Positions 13,489 through 46,540 of a stretch of 64,000 nt of DNA are shown here, one piece after another. Below the pieces are notes generated by a model that made no database searches, was not told the DNA's origin, and worked only from the letters and a program-made list of their open reading frames with translations. Positions within the stretch are counted from its first letter, which is position 1. The number at the start of each line of letters is the position of its first letter. The stretch is from Thermoanaerobaculia bacterium (lineage in GTDB: Bacteria > Acidobacteriota > Thermoanaerobaculia > Multivoradales > JAGPDF01), in assembly GCA_050186295.1 (NCBI GenBank), contig JBFWYP010000006.1, forward strand, positions 65,336 through 129,335. The letters are read 5' to 3'. A program made the translations under genes and the position numbers.

Positions 13489-14154
<666 letters not shown>

Positions 14155-14187
14155 GCGGCGGCTCCTTGTCGTCGCTCTCGAACCGGT

Positions 14188-15830
<1,643 letters not shown>

Positions 15831-15834
<4 letters not shown>

Positions 15835-16805
15835 CGGGCGATCCCCTGGGCGGCGGCGTCGTTGGCTGCCGATTGCGTTGGCGAAAGACTCTTGACGTAG
15901 GTGACCAGCTGATTGAGCGTCTCGTCGGAGAGCTGGCCCTGGAACGACGGCATCAGCGGTTCGTATCCCTGGACGATCTTGGCGGTCGGCATCAGGATCG
16001 ACTCCCGGATGTAGGCGTCGTCGACCAGGACCTTCTCGCCGCTGGCGAGCGTGACCTCGGTACCGACGATGCCGTGCAGGATCGGCCCGCGGCCGCCCGG
16101 CTCGGCCTTGTGGCAGGTGTCGCAGGCGTACTGGGCGAAGAGCTGCGCGCCGGCGCCGCCCGACGACTTCGCGGCCGGAACGCCCGAGAGCCAGGCCTCA
16201 TACTCACCCGGCTCCTGCACCACCACCGTGCCGATCATCTTCGAATGCTCGGCGCCGCAGAACTCGGTGCAGAACAGGTGGTAGCGGCCGGTCTTGGTCG
16301 GTTTGAACCAGAGGCTCGAGGTGCGGCCGGGGACGACGTCCGCCTTCACCCGGAACGCGGGGACGAAGAAGCTGTGGATCACGTCCTCGGACGTCATGAT
16401 GAGTCGCGTCGACTGTCCGACCGGAACGTGGAGCTCGTTGATCTCGCGCTGCCCGGTGGGATGCTGGAGCTTCCACATCCACTGCTTGCCGGTGACGTAG
16501 TACTCGACGGCGTCGGCGGGCGGCTTGTAGAGGCGGAAGAAGACCTTGAGGCCCCAGCCGAAGGTGAAGAGCACGATGAGCAGCGGGATGACCGTCCAGG
16601 TGATCTCGAGGAAGGCGGAGTTCTCGAAGGCGCTGCCGACCTCGTCGGGACTCCGGCGGCGATACTTGATCGCGAAGACGATCACCATGGCGGCGATGAG
16701 CACCGTGAAGAATGTGCTCATTCCGACCAGGAAGAACGTCAGCCGATCGACCTCGCCCGCGAGTTCCGAAGCCTGTTCGGGCACGAAGGGAATCTTGAAA
16801 TTCAT
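15831..16805 (-). CDS. ctaC: Cytochrome c oxidase subunit II with C-terminal cytochrome c domain (caa3 type)
   Basis: CuA centre HSFFVPAF...[12 protein letters not shown] plus a C-terminal CDTCH heme-c motif. ATGA overlap with ctaD. Confidence 0.85.
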
Positions 16806-17707
16806 ACCGAGGCGACTCCTTCAACCGAAGCGCCGGCGCTCCGGTGTTTCCGGCGTTCGCTGCGCAACATCCAGAGGATCGAGCCGAAGAGCACCAGCAG
16901 GGTCACCGTCGCCGCCACCTTGAGCGACAACATGGTGCCGGCGGTGTACTTGCCCAGCGCGGCGTCGTAATTGAAACAGAGCAGGAGGAGCTTCTCGGCG
17001 AGTCCGCCGATCCGCCCTTCGCCGGCCTCGAACAGGGCCAGCTTGAGATCCTTCGGCGCGTACTCGACGCCGTAGAGGTAGCGCGAGATGCGACCGTCGG
17101 CGGTCAGCGCGATGACGCCGCTGGCGTGCGCGTACTGACGGGTGGTCACGTCGTAGGCATAGCGGAAGCCGGCGGCCTCGGTGAGCCGCGCGACGTTTGC
17201 TTCGTCCCCGGTCAGGAAGTGGATTCCGGAAGCGCGCTCCGGGTGGCCGTAGCGCGCCACGATCGCGGCCTTCTTCTCGGCGGCGAGCTCGGCGGTGTCG
17301 GTCGGGTCGAAGCTCACGAAGAGGAGCTCGAACTCGTCTCCCGGAGCGTAGGGAATTCCCTTCATCGACGCCGCGACACCGATCGCCGTCTGCGTGCACA
17401 GGACGGGGCAGCGGTAGTAGACCAGCGCGAGGAGGACCGGCTTCTCGCCGAAGTAGTCACCGAGGCGGACGGCGCGGCCGGTCTCGTCGCGCAGCTCGAG
17501 ATCGAGCGGCACGCTCACGCCGAGGCGCTGGTCGAAGCCGACGCGCTCCTGGATCTGCTGCGCGGTCAGGGCGCCCGGCTGCGACTCCCGGCGGGCGAGA
17601 CCCGGCCCGGTGAACACCTTCTCGGCGACCAGCGGCGCGGCGAGCTGGCTCGAGAGAGCCAGCGCCAGCAGGGCGCGGTGGGCGACGGAGGGGTGCATCG
17701 GACTCAT
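16802..17707 (-). CDS. SCO1/SenC copper chaperone
   Basis: Thioredoxin-fold CPVLC copper-binding motif (YYRCPVLCTQ), a conserved His, and a C-terminal TM anchor. ATGA overlap with ctaC. Confidence 0.8.
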   Translation of the reverse strand: MSPMHPSVAHRALLALALSSQLAAPLVAEKVFTGPGLARRESQPGALTAQQIQERVGFDQRLGVSVPLDLELRDETGRAVRLGDYFGEKPVLLALVYYRCPVLCTQTAIGVAASMKGIPYAPGDEFELLFVSFDPTDTAELAAEKKAAIVARYGHPERASGIHFLTGDEANVARLTEAAGFRYAYDVTTRQYAHASGVIALTADGRISRYLYGVEYAPKDLKLALFEAGEGRIGGLAEKLLLLCFNYDAALGKYTAGTMLSLKVAATVTLLVLFGSILWMLRSERRKHRSAGASVEGVASV

Positions 17708-17717
17708 TCGGCGTGAC

Positions 17718-18185
17718 TCAGTGCCCCGACCCGGGCGCGGTGTGCTCTTCGGCCGCGGCGGCGGCGACGGGCTCCGGCGCAGCGACCGGCGGCGTCGCCG
17801 TGGCGTCGGCGGCCGGCTCGGGCACGGCGAGGCGGTCGATCGCTCTCTCGATCGGCATGTGGGCGATGCCGGCTCGCTGGTCGACCCAGCCCCAGGAGGA
17901 CAGGGCGGCGCTGGTGCTCCGGCGGAGCTCCTGGAGCTCGACCTCTGGCCGGGACTGGAGATGCGGCTCCGGCGGCACCGCTGGAACGCGGGCTTCGGCG
18001 AGCGGTGACGGCTTCGGGTCGGCCCGCTCGGTCCAGCTCCCGAGCGCCTTGTAGAGGAAGTAGCCGACGATCAGGGAGCCGATGGTGATTCCGGCGAGCC
18101 AGGCGGCGATCTCGAGGACCCGCCGGACGTCGATCTCGGAATCGAAACCGCCGGACTGCCCGGGAGACGGAGAGTGACTACTCAT
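17718..18185 (-). CDS. Small single-TM membrane protein of the ACIII-caa3 operon (possible ActG-like)
   Basis: 155 aa with one TM helix (LEIAAWLAGITIGSLIVGYFLY) and a Pro/Ala-rich tail. Assigned by position between actF and sco1; 8-nt overlap with actF. Confidence 0.4.
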   Translation of the reverse strand: MSSHSPSPGQSGGFDSEIDVRRVLEIAAWLAGITIGSLIVGYFLYKALGSWTERADPKPSPLAEARVPAVPPEPHLQSRPEVELQELRRSTSAALSSWGWVDQRAGIAHMPIERAIDRLAVPEPAADATATPPVAAPEPVAAAAAEEHTAPGSGH

Positions 18186-19374
18186 GGCCGAGGGCTTCCT
18201 GGAGGTTGGGGGCGTTGACCGGCAGGAGCGGCGCCTTGGCGAGCTCGCGGGTGAACGCGAAGAGCCAGATGCCGCCGAGCGCCAGGGGAGTCGCGAGATA
18301 GAGCCAGTGGATCGAGAACGCCTCGTGGTGCCAGGTCGGGCGGGAGAGCCACACCAGGTCGACCAGGCGCATGAACAGGACGAATGCCGCGACCCGGGCG
18401 AGCGAACGGGTGCGCTCCTTGACGCCGCGCGAGAGCAGGATCAGGAACGGGAAGAAGAAGTGGAAGACGAGGAGTCCGGCAGCCACCACCCCCCAGCCGC
18501 CGTGGAAGCGCTCCTGGAACCAGATCGCCTCTTCGGGCAGGTTGCCCTGCCACATGATGATGTACTGCGAGATCGAGAGGTAGGTCCAGAACATCACGAA
18601 GGCGAACAAGAGCTTGCCGTAGTCGTGCGAGAGCGTGCGGCTGATCACCGCTTCCATCGGCGCCCGCTGGCGCAGCCAGTTGACGATCAGGATGACGAAC
18701 GACATGCCGGCGAGCGCCTGGCCGGCGACGAAGATCCCGCCGTAGAGGCTCGAGAACCAGTGCGGATCCAGCGACATCAGCCAGTCGAAGCCGAGGAAGG
18801 TGTTGATCACCACCCAGAGCAGCAGACCGACGGCGCTCATGTTGTGCATCGAGCCCTTGATCGCCGGATCGCCCGTGGCGTCCTGGCGCCGCGACTTGGC
18901 GGAGAGGACGTAGGCATAGAGGCTGAAGATCGCGATGGCGAAGATCGTCCGGCCGATGAAGAACGGCACGTTGAGGTAGGGCGCCTTGTGCTCGAGCAGC
19001 GCGTCGCCGGCCACGTGCGCCGGATCGGCCCAGAGGAAGAGCTCCTTCATGCCGAAGAAGAGCGGTATCGCGGCGAGGCCGACAAGGGGCAGGGTGCGCG
19101 AGCCGGCCTCGAGGATGCGGCGTGCCGCGAGGCCCCAGGCGCCGCCCGACAGGTGTTGCATGAGCAGGAAGCCGAGACAGCCGGAGGCGACGGTGTACCA
19201 GAGGAGCCAGGCGACGAGATAGGCCTGGAAGAACTCGGCGCGGGCGACGAAGAGACCGGCGACCGAGGCCGCGGCGGCGACGGCTCCGACGACGAGCGCC
19301 TTGCCACCGAGGCCCGAGAGCGCGCCGGGGGGCGCGACGTCTTCTGCGTGGAGTGGGAAATGGAGCGTCGTCAT
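18178..19374 (-). CDS. actF: Alternative complex III subunit ActF (NrfD/PsrC-like polytopic membrane subunit)
   Basis: A ~400-aa, 10-TM NrfD-like protein paralogous to ActC, in actABCDEF order. Confidence 0.75.
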   Translation of the reverse strand: MTTLHFPLHAEDVAPPGALSGLGGKALVVGAVAAAASVAGLFVARAEFFQAYLVAWLLWYTVASGCLGFLLMQHLSGGAWGLAARRILEAGSRTLPLVGLAAIPLFFGMKELFLWADPAHVAGDALLEHKAPYLNVPFFIGRTIFAIAIFSLYAYVLSAKSRRQDATGDPAIKGSMHNMSAVGLLLWVVINTFLGFDWLMSLDPHWFSSLYGGIFVAGQALAGMSFVILIVNWLRQRAPMEAVISRTLSHDYGKLLFAFVMFWTYLSISQYIIMWQGNLPEEAIWFQERFHGGWGVVAAGLLVFHFFFPFLILLSRGVKERTRSLARVAAFVLFMRLVDLVWLSRPTWHHEAFSIHWLYLATPLALGGIWLFAFTRELAKAPLLPVNAPNLQEALGHE

Positions 19375-19396
19375 AGCGCGGTCGGGAGTCCTCGTT

Positions 19397-20041
19397 CTAG
19401 TGGTGCCCGGCTTCGCCGGAATGGGCGTCGGATTCGGCGGCGACGGGCTGGTCGAGTCGTGCCCGGTCCTCGGGAGCGAGCGTTCCGGCGTCGACGTGCT
19501 GCGAGAGCTGCAGCGCGCGGATGTAGGCCGCGATCGCCCAGCGATCGGCGGGCGGGACCTGCGGCGCGTAGGTCGACATGACGCCGAAACCGTTGGTCAT
19601 GACGTCGAAGAAGTAGCCCACCGGCGCCTCCCGCAGCCGTGCCTCGTGGTACGAGGGGGGCTGCTTGTAGCCGCGCTGGACGACCATCCCGCGGCCGTCG
19701 CCCAGCTTGCCGTGACAGGGGGAGCAGAAGATGTCGTAGCGCTCGCGGCCTCTGAGAAGCAGGGCGCGGGTCATCGGCATCGGCAGTTCGGTCGTCATCG
19801 AGCCGTCGGCGGCACGGCCGGTGAAGAACAGCTTGTCCTCCCGGAGCTCGCCCCGCGCCACGGTGTGGGCGGGAATCTCGCGGATGCCGCTGCCGTCGGC
19901 GAAGAAGTCGCTCGACCGGTACGGCTTGAGCTTCGGCTGATTGTGCATGTCCTGGCGGCAGCCTGCGGCGACGAGCGCCAGTGCAGCCAGGGAGAGAGCG
20001 AGCGCCGGACCGGTCCGGCGGCGGAGGTCAGGACTCGACAT
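19397..20041 (-). CDS. actE: Alternative complex III subunit ActE (lipoprotein monoheme cytochrome c)
   Basis: Lipobox LVAAGC and a single CSPCH heme-binding motif. Confidence 0.7.
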   Translation of the reverse strand: MSSPDLRRRTGPALALSLAALALVAAGCRQDMHNQPKLKPYRSSDFFADGSGIREIPAHTVARGELREDKLFFTGRAADGSMTTELPMPMTRALLLRGRERYDIFCSPCHGKLGDGRGMVVQRGYKQPPSYHEARLREAPVGYFFDVMTNGFGVMSTYAPQVPPADRWAIAAYIRALQLSQHVDAGTLAPEDRARLDQPVAAESDAHSGEAGHH

Positions 20042-20581
20042 CGTGAACCTCCAGGGCGCCGGTGCCGAGCAGGAACTCGCGCGTCGCCGTGCGCTCGAAC
20101 TTCGCGTCCTCGGCCTCGACGCAGAGGAAGAAGCCGTCCCGCGAGGCCTTGCGGCGGAAACTCTCGACGTTGAACACCGGGTGATAGGGCTGCGGCAATC
20201 CGTTGAGCGCCATCATGCCGATCCCCGCCGAGAACGACGCGAGGAGGATGGTGCATTCGAAGATCACCGGGATGAACGCCGGCCAGCTGTTGTACGGCTT
20301 GCCGCCGATGTTCATCGGGTAGTCGATGGTGGAGGTCCAGAACTCGAGGCCCCATCCGCCCAGCGCGCCCATGATGCCGCCGGCGAGACAGATCAGCGGC
20401 ACCCGCGAACGCTGGTGGTTGCAGACCTCTTCCGAGATCGCCTCGACCGGGAACGGAGTGAACGCGTCGATCGCGTTGAATCCCGCCCGCCGTGCCTTGC
20501 GCACGGCCTCGAGCAGCTCCTGCGCCGATCCGTACTCCGCGAGGATGCCGTAAATGCCGGCCGTCGATTCCGTCATGGCAG

Positions 20582-20585
<4 letters not shown>
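20028..20585 (-). CDS. actD: Alternative complex III subunit ActD
   Basis: About 185 aa, with the real start MTAMTESTAGIYGIL... overlapping the actC stop (ATGA). One C-terminal TM helix. Assigned by position and size between actC and actE. Confidence 0.6.
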
Positions 20586-25074
<4,489 letters not shown>

Positions 25075-25100
25075 GTCGGGCTTCACGGATCCCCTGTCAA

Positions 25101-25751
25101 TTAGCGATGGCAGGTCGAGCAGCTGACCTTGCTCTGTACGTTGTGGGCTTCGGCCCAGATCGCCTGCTGCGCCGCGAGGTCGGCCGGGGGCTGCCAGAAG
25201 ACGTTGGTGACCTCGGAGGCCGGCCGCAGGTTCTTCACCGGATCGCGGTGGCAGTCGAGACACCAGCTCATCGTCAGCGGCTGACCCTGGTACATGAGCG
25301 GCATCTTGTCGACGGGGCCGTGGCAGGTGGTGCAGGCCACGCCCTTGGCGACATGGATCGAGTGGTTGAAGTAGACGAAGTCGGGCAGGTCGTTGACCCG
25401 GTTCCAGCGGATCGGCTTGCCTTCGCGGTAGCTCGCCCGGATCGGCTCGAGCAGCTGGGCGTTCGTCCACAGCTGGTTGTGGCAGTTCATGCAGGTCTGG
25501 GTCGGCGGGATCCCCGCCGACGCCTGGCTCTCGACCGCGGTGTGGCAGTAGCGGCAGTCGATTCCGATCTGGGCCACGTGGTGATCGTGGGAGAACGGCA
25601 CCGGCTGTTCGAGAACGATCCCCTGACGCGTCACGTAGCCGGAATGGGCGACGCGCCAGAGCGCGAAGCCTCCCGCCGCGGCGAGGAAGAGGGCCACGAA
25701 GATCGACGCCTTCGCAAAGGCGTTCGCACTGCGAGAGAAGATCTGCGCCAT
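25101..25751 (-). CDS. actA: Alternative complex III subunit ActA (membrane-anchored pentaheme cytochrome c)
   Basis: An N-terminal TM anchor followed by five CxxCH motifs (CRYCH, CMNCH, CTTCH, CLDCH, CSTCH). Confidence 0.8.
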   Translation of the reverse strand: MAQIFSRSANAFAKASIFVALFLAAAGGFALWRVAHSGYVTRQGIVLEQPVPFSHDHHVAQIGIDCRYCHTAVESQASAGIPPTQTCMNCHNQLWTNAQLLEPIRASYREGKPIRWNRVNDLPDFVYFNHSIHVAKGVACTTCHGPVDKMPLMYQGQPLTMSWCLDCHRDPVKNLRPASEVTNVFWQPPADLAAQQAIWAEAHNVQSKVSCSTCHR

Positions 25752-28453: not shown

Positions 28454-28602
28454 TTCGGCTCCTTGGAGTTCCCGGTCGGGGGTGACGTTCGCGGGCGATC
28501 CCGGGTGTGGTCTCGGCGTCGGACTCGGCGCCCGCATGCGAGGGTGCGATTGTAACCGAGCCGGTTGCGGAAGCACGACGAGCGGGGTCTAAGATCTCCG
28601 AC

Positions 28603-31600
28603 ATGCGATCCGCGCTCCGCCTCTCGAGGATTCTCCACCGGTTCGGTTCCTCCCGTTCGTGCGCGGCAGGGGTCGCCTTTGGTCTCGTCGTCGTCGTCGT
28701 CGCCGGCTGCCAGGCGGGTGCCGCGACGATCGTCGAAAACGGAAAGAAGAGCGCGATGTCCGAAGCCGGCCCAGAGACCTGGAAGGAGATCGATCGCCTG
28801 GTCGGCGAGCAGAAGCTCGAGGCGGCGGCGAAGCTGGTCGATGCCCGGGTCGCTGCGGCGGACGAAGCCCGGAACGACGACGAGCTCGCCCGGGCACTGG
28901 TGCGGCGGGCGCAGCTCCGCATCGCCCTCGGCGGCTTCGCGACCGCGGTCGAGGCGCTGCGCGCGAGCCGCTGGCCGGAGAAACCGCTCGCGCATGCCGC
29001 GGTCGAGCTCTACTACGCGCACGCCCTGCTCGACTATCTCGAGGCCTACGACTGGGAGATCCGGCAGCGCGAGCTCGTCGTCTCGGGCGAGACTCTCGAC
29101 CTCGAGCGCTGGACCGCGGCGCAGCTCGCGGACGAAGCCGAGCGGGCGTTCCTCGACGTCTGGGAGAGCCGCGAGGCGCTCGGCGCCGTCGCAGTCGACG
29201 ACTTCCCGTACCTGCGCCCGAACGACTTCCCCGAAGGGATCCGCGACACGCTGCGCGACGCGGTCTCCTACCTCTTCGTCGAGCGGATGCTCGGCAACTC
29301 GCGCTTCTGGTCGGCCGCCGAATCGAACGAGGCCTGGCAACTCGACCTCGAGAACCTGATCGCCGACCGCCCCGTCGTGCCCGCGACGGGGCCGGTCCAC
29401 CCGCTGCTCCGTGCCGCCGTCGTGCTCGCCGACCTCGAGGCGTGGCACCGCGGCAGGAGGGAGCTCGGGGCCGAGCTCCAGGCGCGGATCGCGCGGCAGG
29501 CGACGATCGCCGATCACCGCGAGGGCGCCACGGACCGCGGGCGCCTCCGCGCGGAGCTCGAGCGGCGGCTGCCGCGCTACCGCGACGACCCGTGGTGGGC
29601 CGTCGGCGTCGCCGACCTCGCCGGCGACATCGATCGCGACGACCCGGCGCCGGATCACCGGATCCGCGCGCGCGAGCTCACGCTCCGGGGCGAGCAGGCC
29701 TATCCCGGGAGCTACGGCGCCGACCGCTGCCGGCAGCTGCGGGAGGAGATCGAGGCGCCCGACTTCTCGGTCCAGGCGATGTCCTCGGACGGACCGCGGG
29801 AGCGGTCGTTCGAGGTGACGCACCGCAATCTGCCGCGTCTCCACTTCCGTGCCTTCCGTGTCGATCCCGACGCCGAGCTCGGGCGGGCGGAGTTCCGGGG
29901 GGTCTTCCCCAACGACGCGCGCGAGATCGAGCGCCGGCTGGCCGACAGACCGGTCGCCGAGTGGACCGCCGAGCTGCCGCCGACGCCGGACTACTCGTCG
30001 CACCGCACGTTCGACACCCCGCCCCTCGCCGAAGCGGGCCTCTACTTCGTCGTCGCCTCCGCCGACCGGTCGTTCCGGGCGCGGGGCAACCGGCGCGTGG
30101 CGGTTCCGTTCCTGGTTTCGGACCTCGTCCTCCTCGAAGGGGCGGCGAACGAGAATCCCTGGGAGGTCCGCGTCGTGTCGGGAGGAAGCGGCGCGGCGAT
30201 CGCCGGCGCCGAGGTCGCGCTCTACCGCAACACCTGGCGCCGGGCCCCCGAGCGGATCGCGACGGAGAAGAGCGGTGCGGACGGCCGCGCGCGGCTCGCG
30301 GCGGAGACCGGCCGCGACGCGACGAACTTCCTCGTGGTGGCGCGGCGCGGGGGCGACATCGCCTTCTCGCAGCGCTACCTCTACGGCCGGCGGAGCGAGC
30401 CTTCCGAGCAGACCGCCGCCCTCGTCTTCACCGACCGCGCGATCTACCGGCCACTGCAGAAGGTCGAATGGAAGATCCTGGGCTACCGCAGCGGTCCGGC
30501 GCGCGGGCGGCTGGTACCGTCGCCGCGGATGCCGGCGACGGTCTCGCTCCTCGACCCGAACGGCGAGGAGGTGCAGGAGCTCGCCGTCACCACGAACGAG
30601 TTCGGGACGGCGGCGGGCGCGTTCGAGATTCCGGCCGGGCGCCTCCTCGGGCTCTGGACGGTCCGCACGACGGCGAACGGCTCGGCGTCGATCCGTGTGG
30701 AGGAGTACAAACGGCCCACGTTCGAGGTCGAGATCGGCGAGCCGGACTCGGCGCTGCGGCTCAACCGTGTCGCCGAGCTCGTCGGGAACGCGCGCTACTA
30801 CTTCGGCCTGCCGGTGGCGGGCGGCAGGGTCGCCTGGCGCGTGACGCGGACGCCCGAGTGGCCGGTCTGGTGGCGGTTCTGGGCGCCGCCCGGCGGCGCC
30901 ACCGAAGCGCAGACGATCGCCAGCGGTGTGGCTCCGCTGTCCGACGACGGCACCTTCCGCGTCCGCTTCACACCCGCCGCCGACGAGCGCGAGAAGACGA
31001 GCGGCGCGACCTATCGCTACCGCCTCGAGGCGGACGTCACCGACGACGGCGGCGAGACCCGGAGCGGCGACCGTACGTTCCGCCTCGGCTGGGTGGCGGT
31101 CGAGGCGACGCTCGAGAAGGAGGATCCGCTCTTCGTCGCCGGTGAGGCGATGACCGTCGTCGCGACGCGCCGCGATCTCGACGGAGTCGCGCGTCCGGGC
31201 AGCGGGAGCTTCCGGCTCGTCGCGCTCGACGTGCCGGCGAGAGCGCCGCTCCCGGCCGCGCTCCCCGTCCGTCCCGCGCACGCGGCGGCGAAGGACGATC
31301 CGTACGCGACGCCCGGCGACGCGCTCCGGCCGCGCTGGTCGGGCGGCACGACCGTCGCCGACACGCTCGCCTTCTACGCCGACGGCCGCGAAGTACGGCG
31401 CGGCGAGCTGGCGCACGATGCGCGGGGGCGCTCGACGATCGACCTGGCGGGCGTCCCGGCCGGTGCCTATCGCCTGCGGTACGCGACGACCGACCCGTTC
31501 GGCGAGACCTTCGAGAACCGTCTCGACTTCGTCGTCGCCGCGACCGCAGGCGGAGGCGCGAAACTCGCGCTGCCGGCGGCGATCCTCTTCGATCGCGGCG

Positions 31601-34600
31601 AGGCCCGGCCGGGCGATACCGCCAGGCTCTGGGTGCACTCCGATCTCGGTGACGCTCCGGCCGAAGTCGAGCTCCACCGCGGAGACGAGATCGTCTGGCG
31701 GAAGCAGGTGCGTCTCCGGGGCACGACCTGGTTCGACGTCCCGGTGGCCGAGGCGGATCGCGGCGGGCTCGCCGCGCGCCTGGTGCTGGTCGCCGAGCAT
31801 CAGCTGATGGCGCCCGGCGTTTCGCTCGCCGTGCCGTGGACGAACCGTGAGCTGGCGGTCGAGATCTCGTCGCTCCGCGACAAGCTGACGCCGGGCGGCA
31901 GGGAGAGCTTCCGCGTCACGGTGAAGGACGCGAAGGGGCGCGCCGTCGAGGCGGGCGCCGCCGAGCTCCTCGCCTCGATGTACGACCGCAGCCTCGACCT
32001 CTTCGCCCCGTTCTCGCAGCCGCGGCCGATCGCCCTCTTTCCGACCACGACCTCCCTTCCGCCGGTGCAGAGCAGCCTCGGCACGACCGGTGCGGTCTGG
32101 ATCCGCGACGAAGAGTGGGTCAAGCGCAGCGTGGCGCGCAGCGTCTCGGGCGATTCGTTCGTCGAGATCTCGCCCTACGGCATCGGCGGACCGGGCGGGA
32201 GGTTCCGCCGCTTCGGCGGCTACGCGCGCGGCGGCGTCGCCATGGCCGACGCGGCGATGCCGGCTTCGGCTCCGCCACCGCCGCAGCCGCTGGCGAAGGA
32301 GGCGGAGGCGGACCAGGGAACGGCGGTGGCGGAGAGCCTCGCGGTGCGGTCGGAGGCCCCCACGGCGGACGTCCCGCTGCGCTCGAACTTCGCCGAGACG
32401 GCGTTCTGGCGACCGCAGCTCCTCACCGGCGCCGACGGTTCGGCGACGATCGAGTTCACCGTGCCCGACTCGGTGACTTCGTGGCGGCTCTGGGTGTCGG
32501 CGCTCACGAAGTCGTTCGCCTCGGGGTTCTCGGAGCGCCAGGTCGACTCGGTGAAGGAGCTGATGGTGCGGCCGTATCTGCCGCGCTTCCTGCGCGAGGG
32601 GGACCGCGCCGAGCTCAAGGTGGTGGTGAACGACGCCGGCGATTCGCCGCTCTCCGGCACGGCGCGACTCGAGATCTTCGACCCGGAGACGAACGAGTCG
32701 CTGCTCGGCGAGTTCGGTCTCGACGCCTCGTCCTCGTCGCGGCCGTTCCGGGTCGAACCGGGCAGGGGAGTCGACCTCCTCTTTCCGCTCGCGGCGCCGC
32801 ACCGCGTCGGCCCGACCGCCTTCAAGGTCACCGCCACGGCGGGGAATCTCTCGGACGGCGAGCTGCGGCCGCTTCCGGTCCTGCCGTCGCGGATCCGGCT
32901 CGCGCAGTCGCGCTTCGTGACCCTGAAGAACGCCGACCGCCGCGAGATGACGTTCGACGAAATGAAGCTCCCCGATCCGACGCGCGAGAACGAGCAGCTC
33001 GTGGTGACCGTCGACGGCCAGCTCTTCTACTCGATGCTCGACGCCCTGCCGTATCTCGTCGACTATCCGTACGAGTGCACCGAGCAGACGATGAACCGCT
33101 TCGTCTCGACCGGGATGCTGGCGAGCCTCTTCGACGGCTACCCGGCGCTCGCCGCGATGGCCGCGGAGATGGCGGAGCGGGAGACGCCGTACGAGCGCTT
33201 CGATGCCGCCGATCCGAACCGCAGCATGGGACTCGAAGAGACTCCCTGGCTGCGCGAGTCGCGCGGCAGCGCCGCCGGCGCGGAGGGCGTCGATTTCCTG
33301 CGCGTGCTCGACCCGACGGTCTCGCGAGCCGAGCGCGACGACGCCCTGGCCAAGCTCGCGAAGGCGCAGCTGCCGAACGGCGGCTTCCCCTGGTTCTCCG
33401 GCGGTCCGGCCTCGCCCTACATCACTCTCTATCTCGCGAGCGGCTTCGCGCGGGCGGCCGAGTTCGGTGTCGACGTGCCGAAGCCGATGGTCCAGCGCGC
33501 CTGGAGCTATCTCGGCGCCGAGGCGAAGCGCGACTGGCTGCCGAAGGCGATCGCCGACGACTGCTGCTGGGAGCTCCTCACGTTCCTCAACTACGTCGCC
33601 TCGTCGTATCCCGACGAGTCGTGGGTGGGCGACTTCCTCGAGCCGGCCGACCGGAAGCGGATCCTCGACTTCTCGTTCAAGCACTGGAAAGAGCACGCCC
33701 CGCTCCTCAAGCTCCAGCTCGCGCTGACGCTCCAGCGCGCGGGGCGTCCCGCGGACGCGAAGCTGGTGCTCGCGAGCGTCATGGACTCGGCGAAGACGAC
33801 GCGCGACGAAGGCACCTTCTGGCAGCCGGAGGACCGCTCCTGGCTCTGGTACAACGACCGGATCGAGACCCACGCCTGGGCGCTGCGGGCGCTGATGGAG
33901 ATCACCCCCGACGATCCGCGCCGCGACGGACTGGTGCAGTGGCTGTTCCTCAACAAGAAGCTCAACCACTGGAAGTCGACGCGCGCGACGGCGGAGGTGC
34001 TCTATTCGCTCGCCTGGTACCTCCGGGCGACGAATCAGCTCGCGGTGCGCGAAGAGGCGTCCGTCACCGCGGCGCACCGGACGACGACGTTCGTCTTCGA
34101 ACCCGAACGCTTCACCGGCAGGAAGAACCAGGTCGTCGTCGAGGGTGCGAAGCTCGACGCGGAGAAGCGGCCGGCCGATGCCACGGTCGTCGTCGAGAAG
34201 ACGACTCCCGGTCTCCTCTTCGCCTCGGCGACCTGGCGGTTCTCGACCGAGGAGCTGCCGGCGGAGGCGCGCGGCGATCTGTTCGAGGTCACGCGGCGCT
34301 ACTTCCGGCGCGTCAAGACGGGCGACGAGGTCACGCTTCGTCCGCTCGACCGCAGCGCGCGCCTCGCGGTCGGCGATGAAGTCGAAGTCCAGCTCTCGGT
34401 CCGTGCGAAGGCGGCGGCCGAGTACGTGCACCTCCGCGATCCGCGCCCGGCCGGGCTCGAGCCCGATCGCGCGGTGTCGGGGTGGAAGTGGGATCTGGGC
34501 CTCGCGCGCTACGAGGAAACGCGCGACAGCGGCTCGAACTTCTTCTTCGAACGGCTGCCGGCCGGCGAGTACACGATGAAGTACCGCCTGCGGGCGAACC

Positions 34601-34704
34601 TGGCCGGCGAGTTCCGGAGCGCCCCCGCCCAGCTCCAGTCGATCTACGCTCCCGAGTTCGTCGCCTACTCGGCCGGCGAGCGGCTGGTCATCGCCTCGCC
34701 CTGA
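28603..34704 (+). CDS. Alpha-2-macroglobulin family lipoprotein with thioester motif (bacterial A2M, ~2033 aa)
   Basis: Lipobox VVVVAGC after the signal peptide, thioester motif YPYECTEQTMNRF (CxEQ), and a long MG-domain-like region. Start trimmed from 28507 to the ATG at 28603. Confidence 0.75.
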   Translation: MRSALRLSRILHRFGSSRSCAAGVAFGLVVVVVAGCQAGAATIVENGKKSAMSEAGPETWKEIDRLVGEQKLEAAAKLVDARVAAADEARNDDELARALVRRAQLRIALGGFATAVEALRASRWPEKPLAHAAVELYYAHALLDYLEAYDWEIRQRELVVSGETLDLERWTAAQLADEAERAFLDVWESREALGAVAVDDFPYLRPNDFPEGIRDTLRDAVSYLFVERMLGNSRFWSAAESNEAWQLDLENLIADRPVVPATGPVHPLLRAAVVLADLEAWHRGRRELGAELQARIARQATIADHREGATDRGRLRAELERRLPRYRDDPWWAVGVADLAGDIDRDDPAPDHRIRARELTLRGEQAYPGSYGADRCRQLREEIEAPDFSVQAMSSDGPRERSFEVTHRNLPRLHFRAFRVDPDAELGRAEFRGVFPNDAREIERRLADRPVAEWTAELPPTPDYSSHRTFDTPPLAEAGLYFVVASADRSFRARGNRRVAVPFLVSDLVLLEGAANENPWEVRVVSGGSGAAIAGAEVALYRNTWRRAPERIATEKSGADGRARLAAETGRDATNFLVVARRGGDIAFSQRYLYGRRSEPSEQTAALVFTDRAIYRPLQKVEWKILGYRSGPARGRLVPSPRMPATVSLLDPNGEEVQELAVTTNEFGTAAGAFEIPAGRLLGLWTVRTTANGSASIRVEEYKRPTFEVEIGEPDSALRLNRVAELVGNARYYFGLPVAGGRVAWRVTRTPEWPVWWRFWAPPGGATEAQTIASGVAPLSDDGTFRVRFTPAADEREKTSGATYRYRLEADVTDDGGETRSGDRTFRLGWVAVEATLEKEDPLFVAGEAMTVVATRRDLDGVARPGSGSFRLVALDVPARAPLPAALPVRPAHAAAKDDPYATPGDALRPRWSGGTTVADTLAFYADGREVRRGELAHDARGRSTIDLAGVPAGAYRLRYATTDPFGETFENRLDFVVAATAGGGAKLALPAAILFDRGEARPGDTARLWVHSDLGDAPAEVELHRGDEIVWRKQVRLRGTTWFDVPVAEADRGGLAARLVLVAEHQLMAPGVSLAVPWTNRELAVEISSLRDKLTPGGRESFRVTVKDAKGRAVEAGAAELLASMYDRSLDLFAPFSQPRPIALFPTTTSLPPVQSSLGTTGAVWIRDEEWVKRSVARSVSGDSFVEISPYGIGGPGGRFRRFGGYARGGVAMADAAMPASAPPPPQPLAKEAEADQGTAVAESLAVRSEAPTADVPLRSNFAETAFWRPQLLTGADGSATIEFTVPDSVTSWRLWVSALTKSFASGFSERQVDSVKELMVRPYLPRFLREGDRAELKVVVNDAGDSPLSGTARLEIFDPETNESLLGEFGLDASSSSRPFRVEPGRGVDLLFPLAAPHRVGPTAFKVTATAGNLSDGELRPLPVLPSRIRLAQSRFVTLKNADRREMTFDEMKLPDPTRENEQLVVTVDGQLFYSMLDALPYLVDYPYECTEQTMNRFVSTGMLASLFDGYPALAAMAAEMAERETPYERFDAADPNRSMGLEETPWLRESRGSAAGAEGVDFLRVLDPTVSRAERDDALAKLAKAQLPNGGFPWFSGGPASPYITLYLASGFARAAEFGVDVPKPMVQRAWSYLGAEAKRDWLPKAIADDCCWELLTFLNYVASSYPDESWVGDFLEPADRKRILDFSFKHWKEHAPLLKLQLALTLQRAGRPADAKLVLASVMDSAKTTRDEGTFWQPEDRSWLWYNDRIETHAWALRALMEITPDDPRRDGLVQWLFLNKKLNHWKSTRATAEVLYSLAWYLRATNQLAVREEASVTAAHRTTTFVFEPERFTGRKNQVVVEGAKLDAEKRPADATVVVEKTTPGLLFASATWRFSTEELPAEARGDLFEVTRRYFRRVKTGDEVTLRPLDRSARLAVGDEVEVQLSVRAKAAAEYVHLRDPRPAGLEPDRAVSGWKWDLGLARYEETRDSGSNFFFERLPAGEYTMKYRLRANLAGEFRSAPAQLQSIYAPEFVAYSAGERLVIASP

Positions 34705-39782: not shown

Positions 39783-39927
39783 TCCGCCGGAATCAGGGGG
39801 CTGTTTCCCCGCGCGGCGGGCGCATTTGACAGAAGTCGCGCGGGCGATGGAAGATGGGGGGAACGCATCGTTCAATCAAGAACCGCCCGATCGGTCCGGG
39901 CGTCTGACGTACGAGGGGGGAATTCCA

Positions 39928-40599
39928 TTGAGCCTGAAACTCCGCACGACGACGGTCGTACTCTTCGCCGCCCTGGTCCTGGTGCTCCCGATGAGCTCGT
40001 TCGCGAGCCACGTCGCGGGCGTGAAGGCGACTGTGACCAACGCCGACCCGAACACGCTCCAGGTCGATCTCGACCTCACGGAGTATTACGACGGCAGCTC
40101 GATCCCCTACTCCACGGCCTACATCGGCTACAGTGCGGTTTATCCCACGTTCTACCGCCCGGCGATCGACTGGGGTGACGGTTCGTACCTGTCGCCGCAG
40201 TCCTACCCCAACGGGATCCCGATCGTCGCGACGAGCACCCCGATTTCCGGCTTCCCCGGGACGTACCACATCTATCGTGGGAGCTTCTCGCACACCTACC
40301 CGGCCCAGGGCAACTACAACATCACGGTGAGCTCGACCTGCTGCGGCGGCGTCACCAGCTCCAACGTCACGATCACGGGCAACCCGGTCATCGTTACGGT
40401 CACGCAAGGGGTAGTTCAGGGCCGGGGTCAGGGGACCTACTTCGTCCTCAACTTCACCAACCAGGCGCAGGCGAACCTCGTCGACGCCGGCGGCGGCGAA
40501 GAGAGCATTCTCGCCATTCCGACCCTCTCCGCGACGAGCCTCCTGATGCTCGCGGGCGCGCTGGCCTTCGCCGGGCTGCTGCTCCTGCGCCGCTCCTGA
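39928..40599 (+). CDS. Secreted protein with IPTL-type C-terminal protein-sorting signal (motif + TM + basic tail)
   Basis: Signal peptide (TTG)SLKLRTTTVVLFAALVLVLPMSSFAS. The C-terminus AIPTLSATSLLMLAGALAFAGLLLLRRS is tripartite. RBS GAGGGGGG 8 nt upstream. An alternative ATG start lies at 39847. Confidence 0.55.
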   Translation: MSLKLRTTTVVLFAALVLVLPMSSFASHVAGVKATVTNADPNTLQVDLDLTEYYDGSSIPYSTAYIGYSAVYPTFYRPAIDWGDGSYLSPQSYPNGIPIVATSTPISGFPGTYHIYRGSFSHTYPAQGNYNITVSSTCCGGVTSSNVTITGNPVIVTVTQGVVQGRGQGTYFVLNFTNQAQANLVDAGGGEESILAIPTLSATSLLMLAGALAFAGLLLLRRS

Positions 40600-40622
40600 C
40601 GCACATCGATTCCCCCCGATCG

Positions 40623-40659
40623 ACGGGCGACGCGGCGACGCGTCGCCCGTTTTCGTTTT
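40623..40659 (+). terminator. Rho-independent terminator (12-bp GC stem, GCGA loop, U-tract)
   Basis: ACGGGCGACGCG-gcga-CGCGTCGCCCGT followed by TTTCGTTTT, read directly. It lies 24 nt after the stop of the IPTL-type gene. Confidence 0.55.
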
Positions 40660-40684
40660 CGGAAAGACGCTGCGGAGTGCGGTG

Positions 40685-41686
40685 TCAGAAAGGCGTTGCG
40701 CCCGTGGAGTCCGGCGTGCGCCGGATGGCGAGCAGCGTCAGGTCGTCCGAGCGCCGACCGCCGGCGAGGAAGGCATCGACATCGTCACGGCAGGCGGCGA
40801 GGAGCTCCTCGAGCGGCAGGTGCGCCGCACGGCGCAGGGCGGCGGCGGCGCGCCCGATGCCGTACTCCTCCTCGCCTTTCGCCGCCTCGGTCCAGCCGTC
40901 GGAGTAGAGAAGGAGCGTCTCTCCGGGCTGCACGGAGAGCTCGTGCGCGGCATAGGTCGAATCGCCGAAGAGACCGAGCGGCAGGCCGGCCCCCTCGATC
41001 GGCCGGACGCCGCGGGCGTCGGCGAAGAGCGGCCGCGGGTGGCCGGCGTTGGCGAGCGCCAGCCGGCCGCCGTCGCCGAGCGCGAGGGCGGTGAGTGTCG
41101 CGTACGAAGCCGAACCGGTGGCGTCCGCGAAGAGCCGGTTGGCGCGGCGAACGAGCTCCGGCAGGGCGAGCTGCGCGCCGCTGAGCGCGTGGAAGAGGGC
41201 GTGGAGGTTCGACTGCAGGAACGAGGCTCCGACCCCCTTGCCGACGACGTCGCCGAGGATGAGGTGCAGGGGCTCGCCGCTCGCCTGCGGGCGGAGGACG
41301 TCGACGTGATCGCCCGAGACCGCGCCGTGCGGCTCCCAGAGATAGGCGATCTCCCATTCGCAGTGCCGGACGCGACGCTCGGGGAGGAGCCGGCGCTGAA
41401 TCTGCGCCGCCGCCTCGAGGTCCCGCTCCAGGGCGTGCCGGGCCTCCTCCGACAGACATTCGATGCAGACCCGGAGCAGCGGGTCGGCCGCCATGCGACG
41501 GCGCGAGATCGGCTCCTGGCACTCCTCGCAGACGCCCCATTCGCCGATCTCCATCGCGGCGAGCGCCGCGTCGACGCGGCGCATCAGCTCGACCAGACGC
41601 TCCTCGGGGCGCTCGCGGGTGAGCTCGGCGAGGCGGTCGCGCCGCGCCGTCAGTCGCTCGCGGACGACCTCCTCTTCCCGTGTCAT
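40685..41686 (-). CDS. DksA/TraR-type C4 zinc-finger domain fused to PP2C (SpoIIE/RsbU-type) Ser/Thr phosphatase
   Basis: The N-terminal coiled coil plus C-x2-C-x17-C-x2-C (CEEC...CIEC) matches the DksA/TraR signature. The C-terminal PP2C motifs are GDVVGKGVGASFL, LLYSDGWTEA and DDLTLLAI. Start trimmed to the ATG at 41686, which overlaps the upstream stop (ATGA). Confidence 0.7.
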   Translation of the reverse strand: MTREEEVVRERLTARRDRLAELTRERPEERLVELMRRVDAALAAMEIGEWGVCEECQEPISRRRMAADPLLRVCIECLSEEARHALERDLEAAAQIQRRLLPERRVRHCEWEIAYLWEPHGAVSGDHVDVLRPQASGEPLHLILGDVVGKGVGASFLQSNLHALFHALSGAQLALPELVRRANRLFADATGSASYATLTALALGDGGRLALANAGHPRPLFADARGVRPIEGAGLPLGLFGDSTYAAHELSVQPGETLLLYSDGWTEAAKGEEEYGIGRAAAALRRAAHLPLEELLAACRDDVDAFLAGGRRSDDLTLLAIRRTPDSTGATPF

Positions 41687-45997: not shown

Positions 45998-46540
45998 GTG
46001 ATCCGTTCCGCACGCTCCTCGTTCGCCGGCCTGGCGGGGCTCTGCCTCGGCGTCGGCCTCCTCCTGCCCTCCGGGGCAGAGGCGGGAACTCTGAACGGGG
46101 TCGGCGTCACGCCGGAGGCCGTGCAGCTCGGATCGATCGAGGTGAGCGCTCCGGTCGGCTGCGTCGTCGCCTACACGGTGAGCGTCGTCACCACCCTGGA
46201 GGCGCAGCCGGAACAGTTCGAGATCCAGGTCGCGGACGACGGCGTGATCACGCAGATCGTGCCGCTCGAGGCGCCCGCCGACGGCGCGCTGCACGTCCTG
46301 CAGGGCAGCTTCGCGTTGACGCGGCCGCCCGCCGACGGCAGTCCCGGAGTCGGCATCTACCTGGTCGACGACGGTCTCGTCCTCGATGCGGTGGACCCGT
46401 TCGGCCTGCCTTGTTCGGCGCCCGACGTCCCGGCCCTCGCCGGCTCCGGCTATGTCGCGCTCATCGCCGTGCTCGCGCTCGTTGCGCTCTTCGCACTGCG
46501 CCGGCTCCGACGGCCGAGCGCTGCCGGTCTCGCCTCCTAG
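45998..46540 (+). CDS. Small secreted protein with C-terminal sorting-signal-like tail (VPAL motif + TM + RRLRR)
   Basis: Signal peptide (GTG)IRSARSSFAGLAGLCLGVGLLLPSGAEA. The C-terminus is DVPALAGSGYVALIAVLALVALFALRRLRRP. A sigma70-like TTGCGG-16-TAAACT element lies immediately upstream. Confidence 0.45.
   Translation: MIRSARSSFAGLAGLCLGVGLLLPSGAEAGTLNGVGVTPEAVQLGSIEVSAPVGCVVAYTVSVVTTLEAQPEQFEIQVADDGVITQIVPLEAPADGALHVLQGSFALTRPPADGSPGVGIYLVDDGLVLDAVDPFGLPCSAPDVPALAGSGYVALIAVLALVALFALRRLRRPSAAGLAS

Follow-up and report, generated by a model that had tools for sequence, protein, structure and literature searches.

A small IPTL-CTERM protein with a PKD-like domain and its conserved sulfatase-fold::TPR neighbour in a Thermoanaerobaculia bacterium

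Does the C-terminus of a small secreted protein of a Thermoanaerobaculia bacterium (Acidobacteriota) act as a sorting signal, and with which enzyme and which partner protein would it then work? The question is raised by a gene for a protein of 223 residues in a 64,000-nucleotide stretch of contig JBFWYP010000006.1 of assembly GCA_050186295.1 (positions 65,336 to 129,335 of the forward strand); the whole stretch is called the window here, the protein is referred to as the target, and the coordinates of the features discussed are collected in Table 1. The C-terminal sequence of the target is AIPTLSATSLLMLAGALAFAGLLLLRRS, a tripartite arrangement of motif, hydrophobic helix and basic cluster at the extreme end of the protein, exactly as described in an initial annotation of the window, and a helix at residues 202–222 is present in a model made with AlphaFold2 (AF2).

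The initial annotation had placed this tail in the IPTL-CTERM class and had recommended a comparison with the NCBIfam sorting-domain models. In that comparison the model TIGR04174 (IPTL_CTERM) matched residues 197–222, corresponding to profile positions 1–26 of 27, with 22.4 bits (E 1.1e-4) at a curated cutoff of 20.5. An exact-sequence look-up returned the NCBI name 'IPTL-CTERM sorting domain-containing protein [Thermoanaerobaculia bacterium]' (MGE0639619.1, MGE4189550.1). The class assignment is therefore supported, but it is already contained in the public annotation and hence not new. The next NCBIfam match on the target tail was NF033207, 'midcut-by-XrtH protein', with 17.3 bits, far under its cutoff. 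Beyond these two, the only matches of the target to NCBIfam at E<=10 were ExtJ (N-terminal and unrelated, E 0.91) and GVDTG (6.6 bits). PEP, LPXTG and GG motifs are absent from the tail, and no model for PEP-CTERM, LPXTG or GlyGly-CTERM matched it.

The gene itself has the properties of a genuine coding sequence. The G+C content at third codon positions (GC3) is 0.91 in the frame of the 223-residue open reading frame (ORF), and reading out of frame gives 0.56 and 0.50; because GC3 is high in this frame only, in a window of 70% GC, the ORF can be taken as real. The protein had been called rich in Cys, Thr and Ser: Ser and Thr together indeed make up 21% of the residues, but there are only two Cys (0.9%, an adjacent CC pair), so that the term Cys-rich does not apply. 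Gly accounts for 10% and Tyr for 6%.

At the N-terminus the three regions of a Sec signal peptide can be recognized, as had been noted before: an n-region (MSLKLRT), a hydrophobic h-region (TTVVLFAALVLVLP) and a c-region with the predicted cleavage site (MSSFA|SH). This layout was read directly from the sequence; the signal peptide is conserved in homologs, an H-x-A-G-[VI]-K motif past the predicted cleavage site is conserved across the family alignment, and the AF2 model has a helix at residues 3–19.

Between signal peptide and tail, the AF2 model (made from a 15-sequence alignment) shows an all-beta sandwich, connected to the terminal helix by a low-confidence linker at residues 189–198. Two motifs stand out in the family alignment, (I/V)DWGDGS and YRGSFSHTYxxxGxYxITV, and the domain scores below the Pfam thresholds for PKD domains (PF00801, 14.1 against 27; PF18911, 13.1 against 23.5). 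The model and the motifs suggest that the passenger domain is a divergent and enlarged PKD-like domain of about 160 residues. It differs from PKD domains in being about twice their usual length, with its two motifs about 36 residues apart.

The target has homologs with which it forms a family. When 5.8 billion proteins were searched through a word index, only 14 relatives were obtained, of about 185–233 residues and all with the same layout; a profile run against 1.84 billion cluster representatives gave 266 at E<=1e-3, of which 155 reached E<=1e-10. Family size (266, or about 270) is counted here in clusters at 50% identity. Most members found by the profile search have 190–270 residues and are aligned to the last positions of the profile. 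They constitute a small unnamed family with a PKD-like passenger domain, which is a new point.

The conservation of the tails in this family bears directly on their nature. In 120 aligned family tails the motif [IV]-P-T-x-S-x-x-G, located at the helix boundary, is among the most informative columns (I/V in 111/119, P in 112/119, T in 80/116, S in 76/119 and G in 79/119), and the tails finish in L-R-R; their consensus is EIPTLSTWGLLLLALLLALAGLVLLRRRR. Conservation of this kind argues that the tail is not a plain membrane anchor. The initial annotation had named a simple transmembrane anchor lacking a conserved motif as one outcome that would speak against its reading, and the conserved motif of the family tails contradicts this outcome. 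TIGR04174 matches the tails of 50 of 149 family members and NF033207 those of 44 of 149. One member, P0002, is 61–67% identical overall, but only 2 of 31 tail positions differ.

Other members of the family carry entirely different endings. A Cys-type tail, SRCGLGAELAVILPPMIFWRERRRRR (C-G-L-x-G-x-E ... LP/YP ... RRRR), was found in L009, from a Deltaproteobacteria metagenome-assembled genome (MAG), and in four further representatives; the carriers named are L009:9262-10002 and P0044, P0052, P0145, P0150 and P0151. A conserved non-membrane end, (L/V)FADGFESGDxSxWS, is present in L011:9878-10516, L011:10517-11146 and L014:2-670 and in P0062, P0073, P0077, P0093, P0122 and P0135. Longer versions of the family with DUF11 repeats keep VPTLS, IPSLS or IPTIS tails. 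Exchange of endings among homologs of the same domain is as expected of a modular sorting signal that is matched to the machinery of the host. The Cys-type tails were not matched by any NCBIfam sorting model, even at E<=10; they may represent an unmodelled sorting signal in Deltaproteobacteria-like MAGs.

Table 1. Coordinates of the IPTL-CTERM protein gene, its parts and associated features in the window
Feature	Position	Strand	Characteristics
Divergent Spy/CpxP-like periplasmic chaperone, 185 residues	36373..36930	-	two LTxxQ-type motifs
Sulfatase-fold::TPR partner, 920 residues	37020..39782	+	Pfam Sulfatase, Phosphodiest and TPR matches
Ribosome-binding site GAGGGGGG	39913..39920	+	7 nt 5' of TTG; read from sequence
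IPTL-CTERM protein gene	39928..40599	+	223 residues, TTG start, stop codon included
Predicted signal peptide, residues 1–27	39928..40008	+	predicted cleavage after SFA
Divergent PKD-like beta-sandwich, residues about 28–185	40009..40482	+	motifs IDWGDGS and YRGSFSHTYxxxGxYxITV
IPTL-CTERM tail	40516..40596	+	IPTL residues 197–200, hydrophobic 201–220, RR 221–222, S223
Intrinsic terminator-like hairpin	40622..40661	+	13-bp stem with 10 GC pairs, then T-run; 23 nt past stop codon
Candidate second tail-bearing protein, 180 residues, signal peptide	45998..46540	+	ends DVPALAGSGYVALIAVLALVALFALRRLRR plus 8 residues

The gene directly upstream encodes a protein, referred to here as the partner, with one N-terminal hydrophobic segment (anchor or signal), a sulfatase-fold domain of the alkaline-phosphatase superfamily and a C-terminal TPR array of about 460 residues. 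The best solved relatives of its sulfatase fold are carrageenan and choline sulfatases (E 1e-25). The formylglycine Cys of 6pt4, an iota-carrageenan sulfatase, aligns with Thr94 in the motif APITLVAH of the partner. Residues D54, T94, H98, D260 and H261 are invariant in 14 partner orthologs, D54, D260 and H261 being metal-site residues, and the motifs DTTRxDRL, APITLVAH and GDHGE are largely conserved among them. Compared with the S1 formylglycine sulfatases, the partner thus has the PF00884 fold and the metal-site motifs, but the S1 motif C/S-x-P-x-R is not present and is replaced by T-L-V-A-H in 14 of 14 orthologs, and the TPR array is fused C-terminally. As the position of the Cys is occupied by an invariant Thr, the partner is not a formylglycine sulfatase; the alignments identify it as a Thr-nucleophile member of the alkaline-phosphatase superfamily. 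A connection of the partner with exosortase systems through PrsT, a protein of the XrtA system, was considered and rejected: the match of the TPR array is generic and sub-threshold (144.5 bits against a cutoff of 312), and the MamA and PilW models also match this array.

Whether this flanking gene is functionally linked to the target had been left open in the initial annotation. Its neighbourhood was compared in 16 loci found with the small protein as seed, three through contigs of homologs (L002, L003 and L017) and 13 in a scan of species-representative genomes; they originate from MAGs of Thermoanaerobaculia and further Acidobacteriota, from Marinicella sediminis F2, and from one MAG each of Marinicella, Alcanivoracaceae, Deltaproteobacteria and Pseudomonadota. 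A full-length ortholog of the partner (49–58% identical) lies directly upstream and on the same strand in 12 of these 16 loci. When the enzyme was used as seed in metagenome loci, a family member was found to be adjacent in 11 of 13 cases, counting close orthologs (>=50% identity) with enough flank; the family member is upstream in two of these 11, on the opposite strand in one, and in one there is no stop codon between the two. Partner homologs of <=46% identity had no adjacent family member in any of the enzyme-seeded metagenome loci. The adjacency of small protein and partner is thus conserved across Acidobacteriota and Gammaproteobacteria, a new point that supports a functional link between the two. 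The pairing is kept in loci whose small protein ends in a Cys-type tail (L009) or without any tail (L011), so that the linkage concerns the PKD-like domain and not the tail. In one metagenome contig (L029:378-3989) a partner ortholog and a PKD-like domain occur in one frame, either as a natural fusion or as an assembly artefact; the contig ends inside the domain.

In the window, no plus-strand terminator is present in the 145-bp gap between the partner gene and the small gene, and the latter is followed by a strong one. This placement suggests that the small gene is probably co-transcribed with the upstream partner gene. Upstream of the pair, and divergent from it, lies a gene whose product has weak NCBIfam matches to Spy (E 3e-4) and CpxP and the NCBI name 'Spy/CpxP family protein refolding chaperone'. 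By tblastn, homologs of this gene were found at the same place, divergent upstream of the pair, in 8 of 13 genome loci and also in L002 and L003. Furthermore, in L002, L003 and L017 FG-GAP/UnbV_ASPIC proteins and TPR proteins are encoded in alternation downstream of the pair, an arrangement that suggests a larger conserved envelope gene cluster; the pair of the window has no such genes behind it.

A second IPTL-type tail may be encoded in the window itself, 5.4 kb downstream of the target gene. The 180-residue ORF at this position scores 25.8 bits (E 8e-7) with a hidden Markov model (HMM) of the 120 family tails, the next best ORF of the window reaching 8.3 bits; a narrower HMM, made from 21 tails, did not detect it. 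No NCBIfam sorting model recognises this ORF, NF033207 giving 12.4 bits only. P0054, a family member with a VPALSGY tail very similar to that of this ORF, passes TIGR04174. Judging from its tail, the protein is a possible further cargo for this system. In addition, an Acidobacteriota MAG contains a short ORF ending in ...CRAVPTLPTTGIVVFLAVLLATGMWTLRRR (L016:9773-10018, minus strand), convergent to an ortholog of the sulfatase-fold::TPR gene, as a further IPTL-type tail.

Comparison with known systems shows both common and deviating properties. With the IPTL-CTERM proteins described by TIGR04174 and PF18203 the target shares the signal peptide, the C-terminal IPTL motif, the helix and the Arg cluster; it differs in the missing W-G, a score under the PF18203 gathering threshold, an Acidobacteriota host and the unnamed PKD-like passenger. 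The PEP-CTERM/exosortase systems (XrtA, XrtB and, by NCBIfam naming, XrtH) likewise have a tripartite C-terminal signal, diderm hosts and possibly many cargos per enzyme, and the family tails resemble the region matched by NF033207; the target, however, has neither a PEP motif nor a PEP-CTERM model match, and no exosortase gene was found within the window or close to it. A literature search gave a single IPTL-CTERM protein with an experimental localisation, mela_00855 of Methylomirabilis lanthanidiphila, which has 312 residues, a signal peptide and a predicted IPTL-CTERM at 285–312, and builds a hexagonal S-layer external to the outer membrane (PMC8671808). Its C-terminal tail is the only part that was unseen by mass spectrometry (PMC8671808), which fits removal of the tail but is no proof of it. 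Both mela_00855 and the target are small secreted proteins of diderm bacteria, but a lattice is described for the former only. The diderm nature of the host follows from an LptD gene, encoded 1.5–4 kb upstream of the window start in another assembly of the same organism.

Taken together, these data are most probably, though by no means certainly, explained by a small envelope protein with a PKD-like domain that is sorted through its IPTL-CTERM by an enzyme encoded elsewhere, and that acts together with the partner. We propose that the protein is exported by Sec with cleavage of the signal peptide, after which its last 27 residues would transiently anchor it in the inner membrane, IPTL lying at the boundary of the membrane and the RR in the cytoplasm. 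The cut at the IPT motif would then most likely be made by a dedicated membrane enzyme whose gene lies at another place in the genome, an XrtH-type exosortase being the most likely candidate, and the cut protein would be passed on to the surface of the cell or to its outer envelope. At this final site, or before that in the periplasm, the PKD-like domain may work with the TPR-bearing enzyme, for instance through binding of the anchored PKD-like protein by the TPR array of the partner.

The candidate role of XrtH derives, within this analysis, from the name of the NCBIfam model NF033207 and the matches of this model to family tails. NCBIfam also has a model 'exosortase H, IPTLxxWG-CTERM-specific'. 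A literature search gave nothing relevant on XrtH, exosortase H or IPTLxxWG, and IPTL is not mentioned in the myxosortase preprint of Haft (2023). The earlier statement that the IPTL-CTERM class has no demonstrated processing enzyme hence holds for experimental work, for which no demonstration was found, but has to be modified in that an enzyme class has been defined bioinformatically, as the 'midcut-by-XrtH' model implies.

Several results weigh against the proposed sorting. Among the likely genes of the window, picked as ORFs of high GC3 and annotated or scanned with Pfam, there is no sortase, exosortase (PF09721) or rhomboid, in agreement with the initial annotation, which had listed no sorting enzyme for the window. 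Neither was a sorting enzyme found beyond the ends of the window, where other assemblies of this organism supply about 11 kb more (about 6.6 kb on the left side and 4.4 kb on the right), and exosortase, sortase and rhomboid were also absent among six multi-transmembrane ORFs that were scanned in related loci derived from genomes. In the searchable literature there is no demonstration that an IPTL-CTERM tail is cleaved. The Pfam model of the tail, PF18203, gives 17.7 bits for the target and thus stays under its gathering score (20.8); the sequence IPTLSATS of the target has neither the Trp nor the Gly of the family consensus IPTLSxWG; and the only further tail candidate in the 64 kb is not matched by TIGR04174. 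Finally, gene adjacency is no proof of physical or functional partnership, and the AF2 model is only moderately confident (mean predicted local distance difference test score, pLDDT, 69.9).

The multi-transmembrane ORFs of the window that were considered as sorting enzyme and rejected correspond to DUF92, UbiA (two), COX1, COX2 and COX3, Sensor protein and MacB/FtsX. The remaining candidate, a nine-helix protein of 398 residues (18178-19374) without a Pfam or NCBIfam match, sits within the alternative-complex-III/cox cluster. The six ORFs of the related loci were an ion channel, Vut_1, FtsX, a CDP-alcohol phosphatidyltransferase and two without a family.

The main alternative is that the tail remains uncut and serves as a plain permanent anchor. 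The target would then be a bitopic inner-membrane protein whose PKD-like domain faces the periplasm, where it might serve as a docking site for the TPR enzyme. The lack of a processing enzyme nearby, the missing consensus W and G together with the low PF18203 score, and the sole N-terminal hydrophobic segment of the partner, which fits an inner-membrane or periplasmic complex, would all agree with such an anchor. On the other hand, a near-invariant Pro within I/V-P-T-x-S-x-x-G exactly at the helix boundary of 120 tails, a tail that is more conserved than the ectodomain, homologs that swap the tail for a Cys-type tail or lose it, and the position of an IPTL-CTERM S-layer protein of another diderm beyond its outer membrane (PMC8671808) speak against a mere anchor, which we therefore consider unlikely, albeit worth serious consideration. 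That the ORF arose by chance, or that its tail is mis-annotated and simply a hydrophobic Arg-ending C-terminus that passes a short 27-position model, might be argued from the small margin of the TIGR04174 score, the failure of PF18203 and the frequency of spurious ORFs in high-GC genomes; this is, however, extremely improbable, as the idea is refuted by the evidence from codon usage and homologs: GC3 is high in this frame only, a ribosome-binding site and a terminator are present, most of the 155 representative homologs at E<=1e-10 match through the tail, and synteny is conserved.

A different role for the partner is also conceivable. Among the Thr-nucleophile members of the alkaline-phosphatase superfamily are phosphoethanolamine transferases, and for some of these the substrates are proteins. 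The partner enzyme might itself modify the small protein, by adding or removing a phospho-form group, or attach it, so that the two would form a self-contained enzyme–substrate module without a separate exosortase. In line with this, the adjacency is strong in both search directions and across phyla, L029 has both proteins in a single open frame, and the catalytic motifs are largely kept in 14 orthologs, from which, with the five invariant residues, the partner would appear to be probably active. Yet the partner has no multi-helix membrane domain of the kind present in known lipid-dependent phospho-form transferases, and the adjacency is kept with another tail or none (L009, L011), so that the link is with the PKD-like domain instead of the IPTL tail; we regard this possibility as very doubtful. 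A more far-reaching suggestion is that the PKD-like protein, the Thr-type enzyme::TPR protein and the Spy/CpxP-like chaperone together form an undescribed envelope module of Thermoanaerobaculia and marine Gammaproteobacteria, in which the enzyme is tethered by the small protein or modifies it, and in which IPTL-type tails are possibly handled by an enzyme other than a classical linked exosortase; this is speculative and, in our judgement, rather improbable.

The sorting-signal class recognised here was already named on this protein, and no new kind of system is added. IPTL-CTERM proteins have, however, almost no experimental literature, and the present family offers a compact cargo of 17 kDa, a tightly conserved partner enzyme and natural variants with other tails or none, as well as a cultured isolate carrying a representative, Marinicella sediminis F2. 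For these reasons it would be a convenient test case for the processing of IPTL tails and for the role of the Thr-type enzyme.

Some further genes of the window deserve mention. The respiratory cluster on the minus strand (13489-25470) comprises COX3, COX1, COX2-cytochrome c and SCO1, followed by alternative-complex-III-like genes that include a c-type cytochrome and a large Fe-S/molybdopterin subunit. A bacterial alpha-2-macroglobulin of about 2030–2065 residues with MG2, A2M and bMG10 domains is encoded on the plus strand (28507-34704), followed by a 361-residue gene without a family match. In assembly GCA_050251375.1, positions 1 to about 8445 of the window lie on contig JBFWMX010000030.1, which ends inside a UbiA gene, and the target lies on JBFWMX010000012.1. 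The gene downstream of and convergent to the target gene (40685-41686, minus strand) encodes an unusual fusion of a DksA/TraR-type C4 zinc finger with a phosphatase domain of the SpoIIE/PP2C type.

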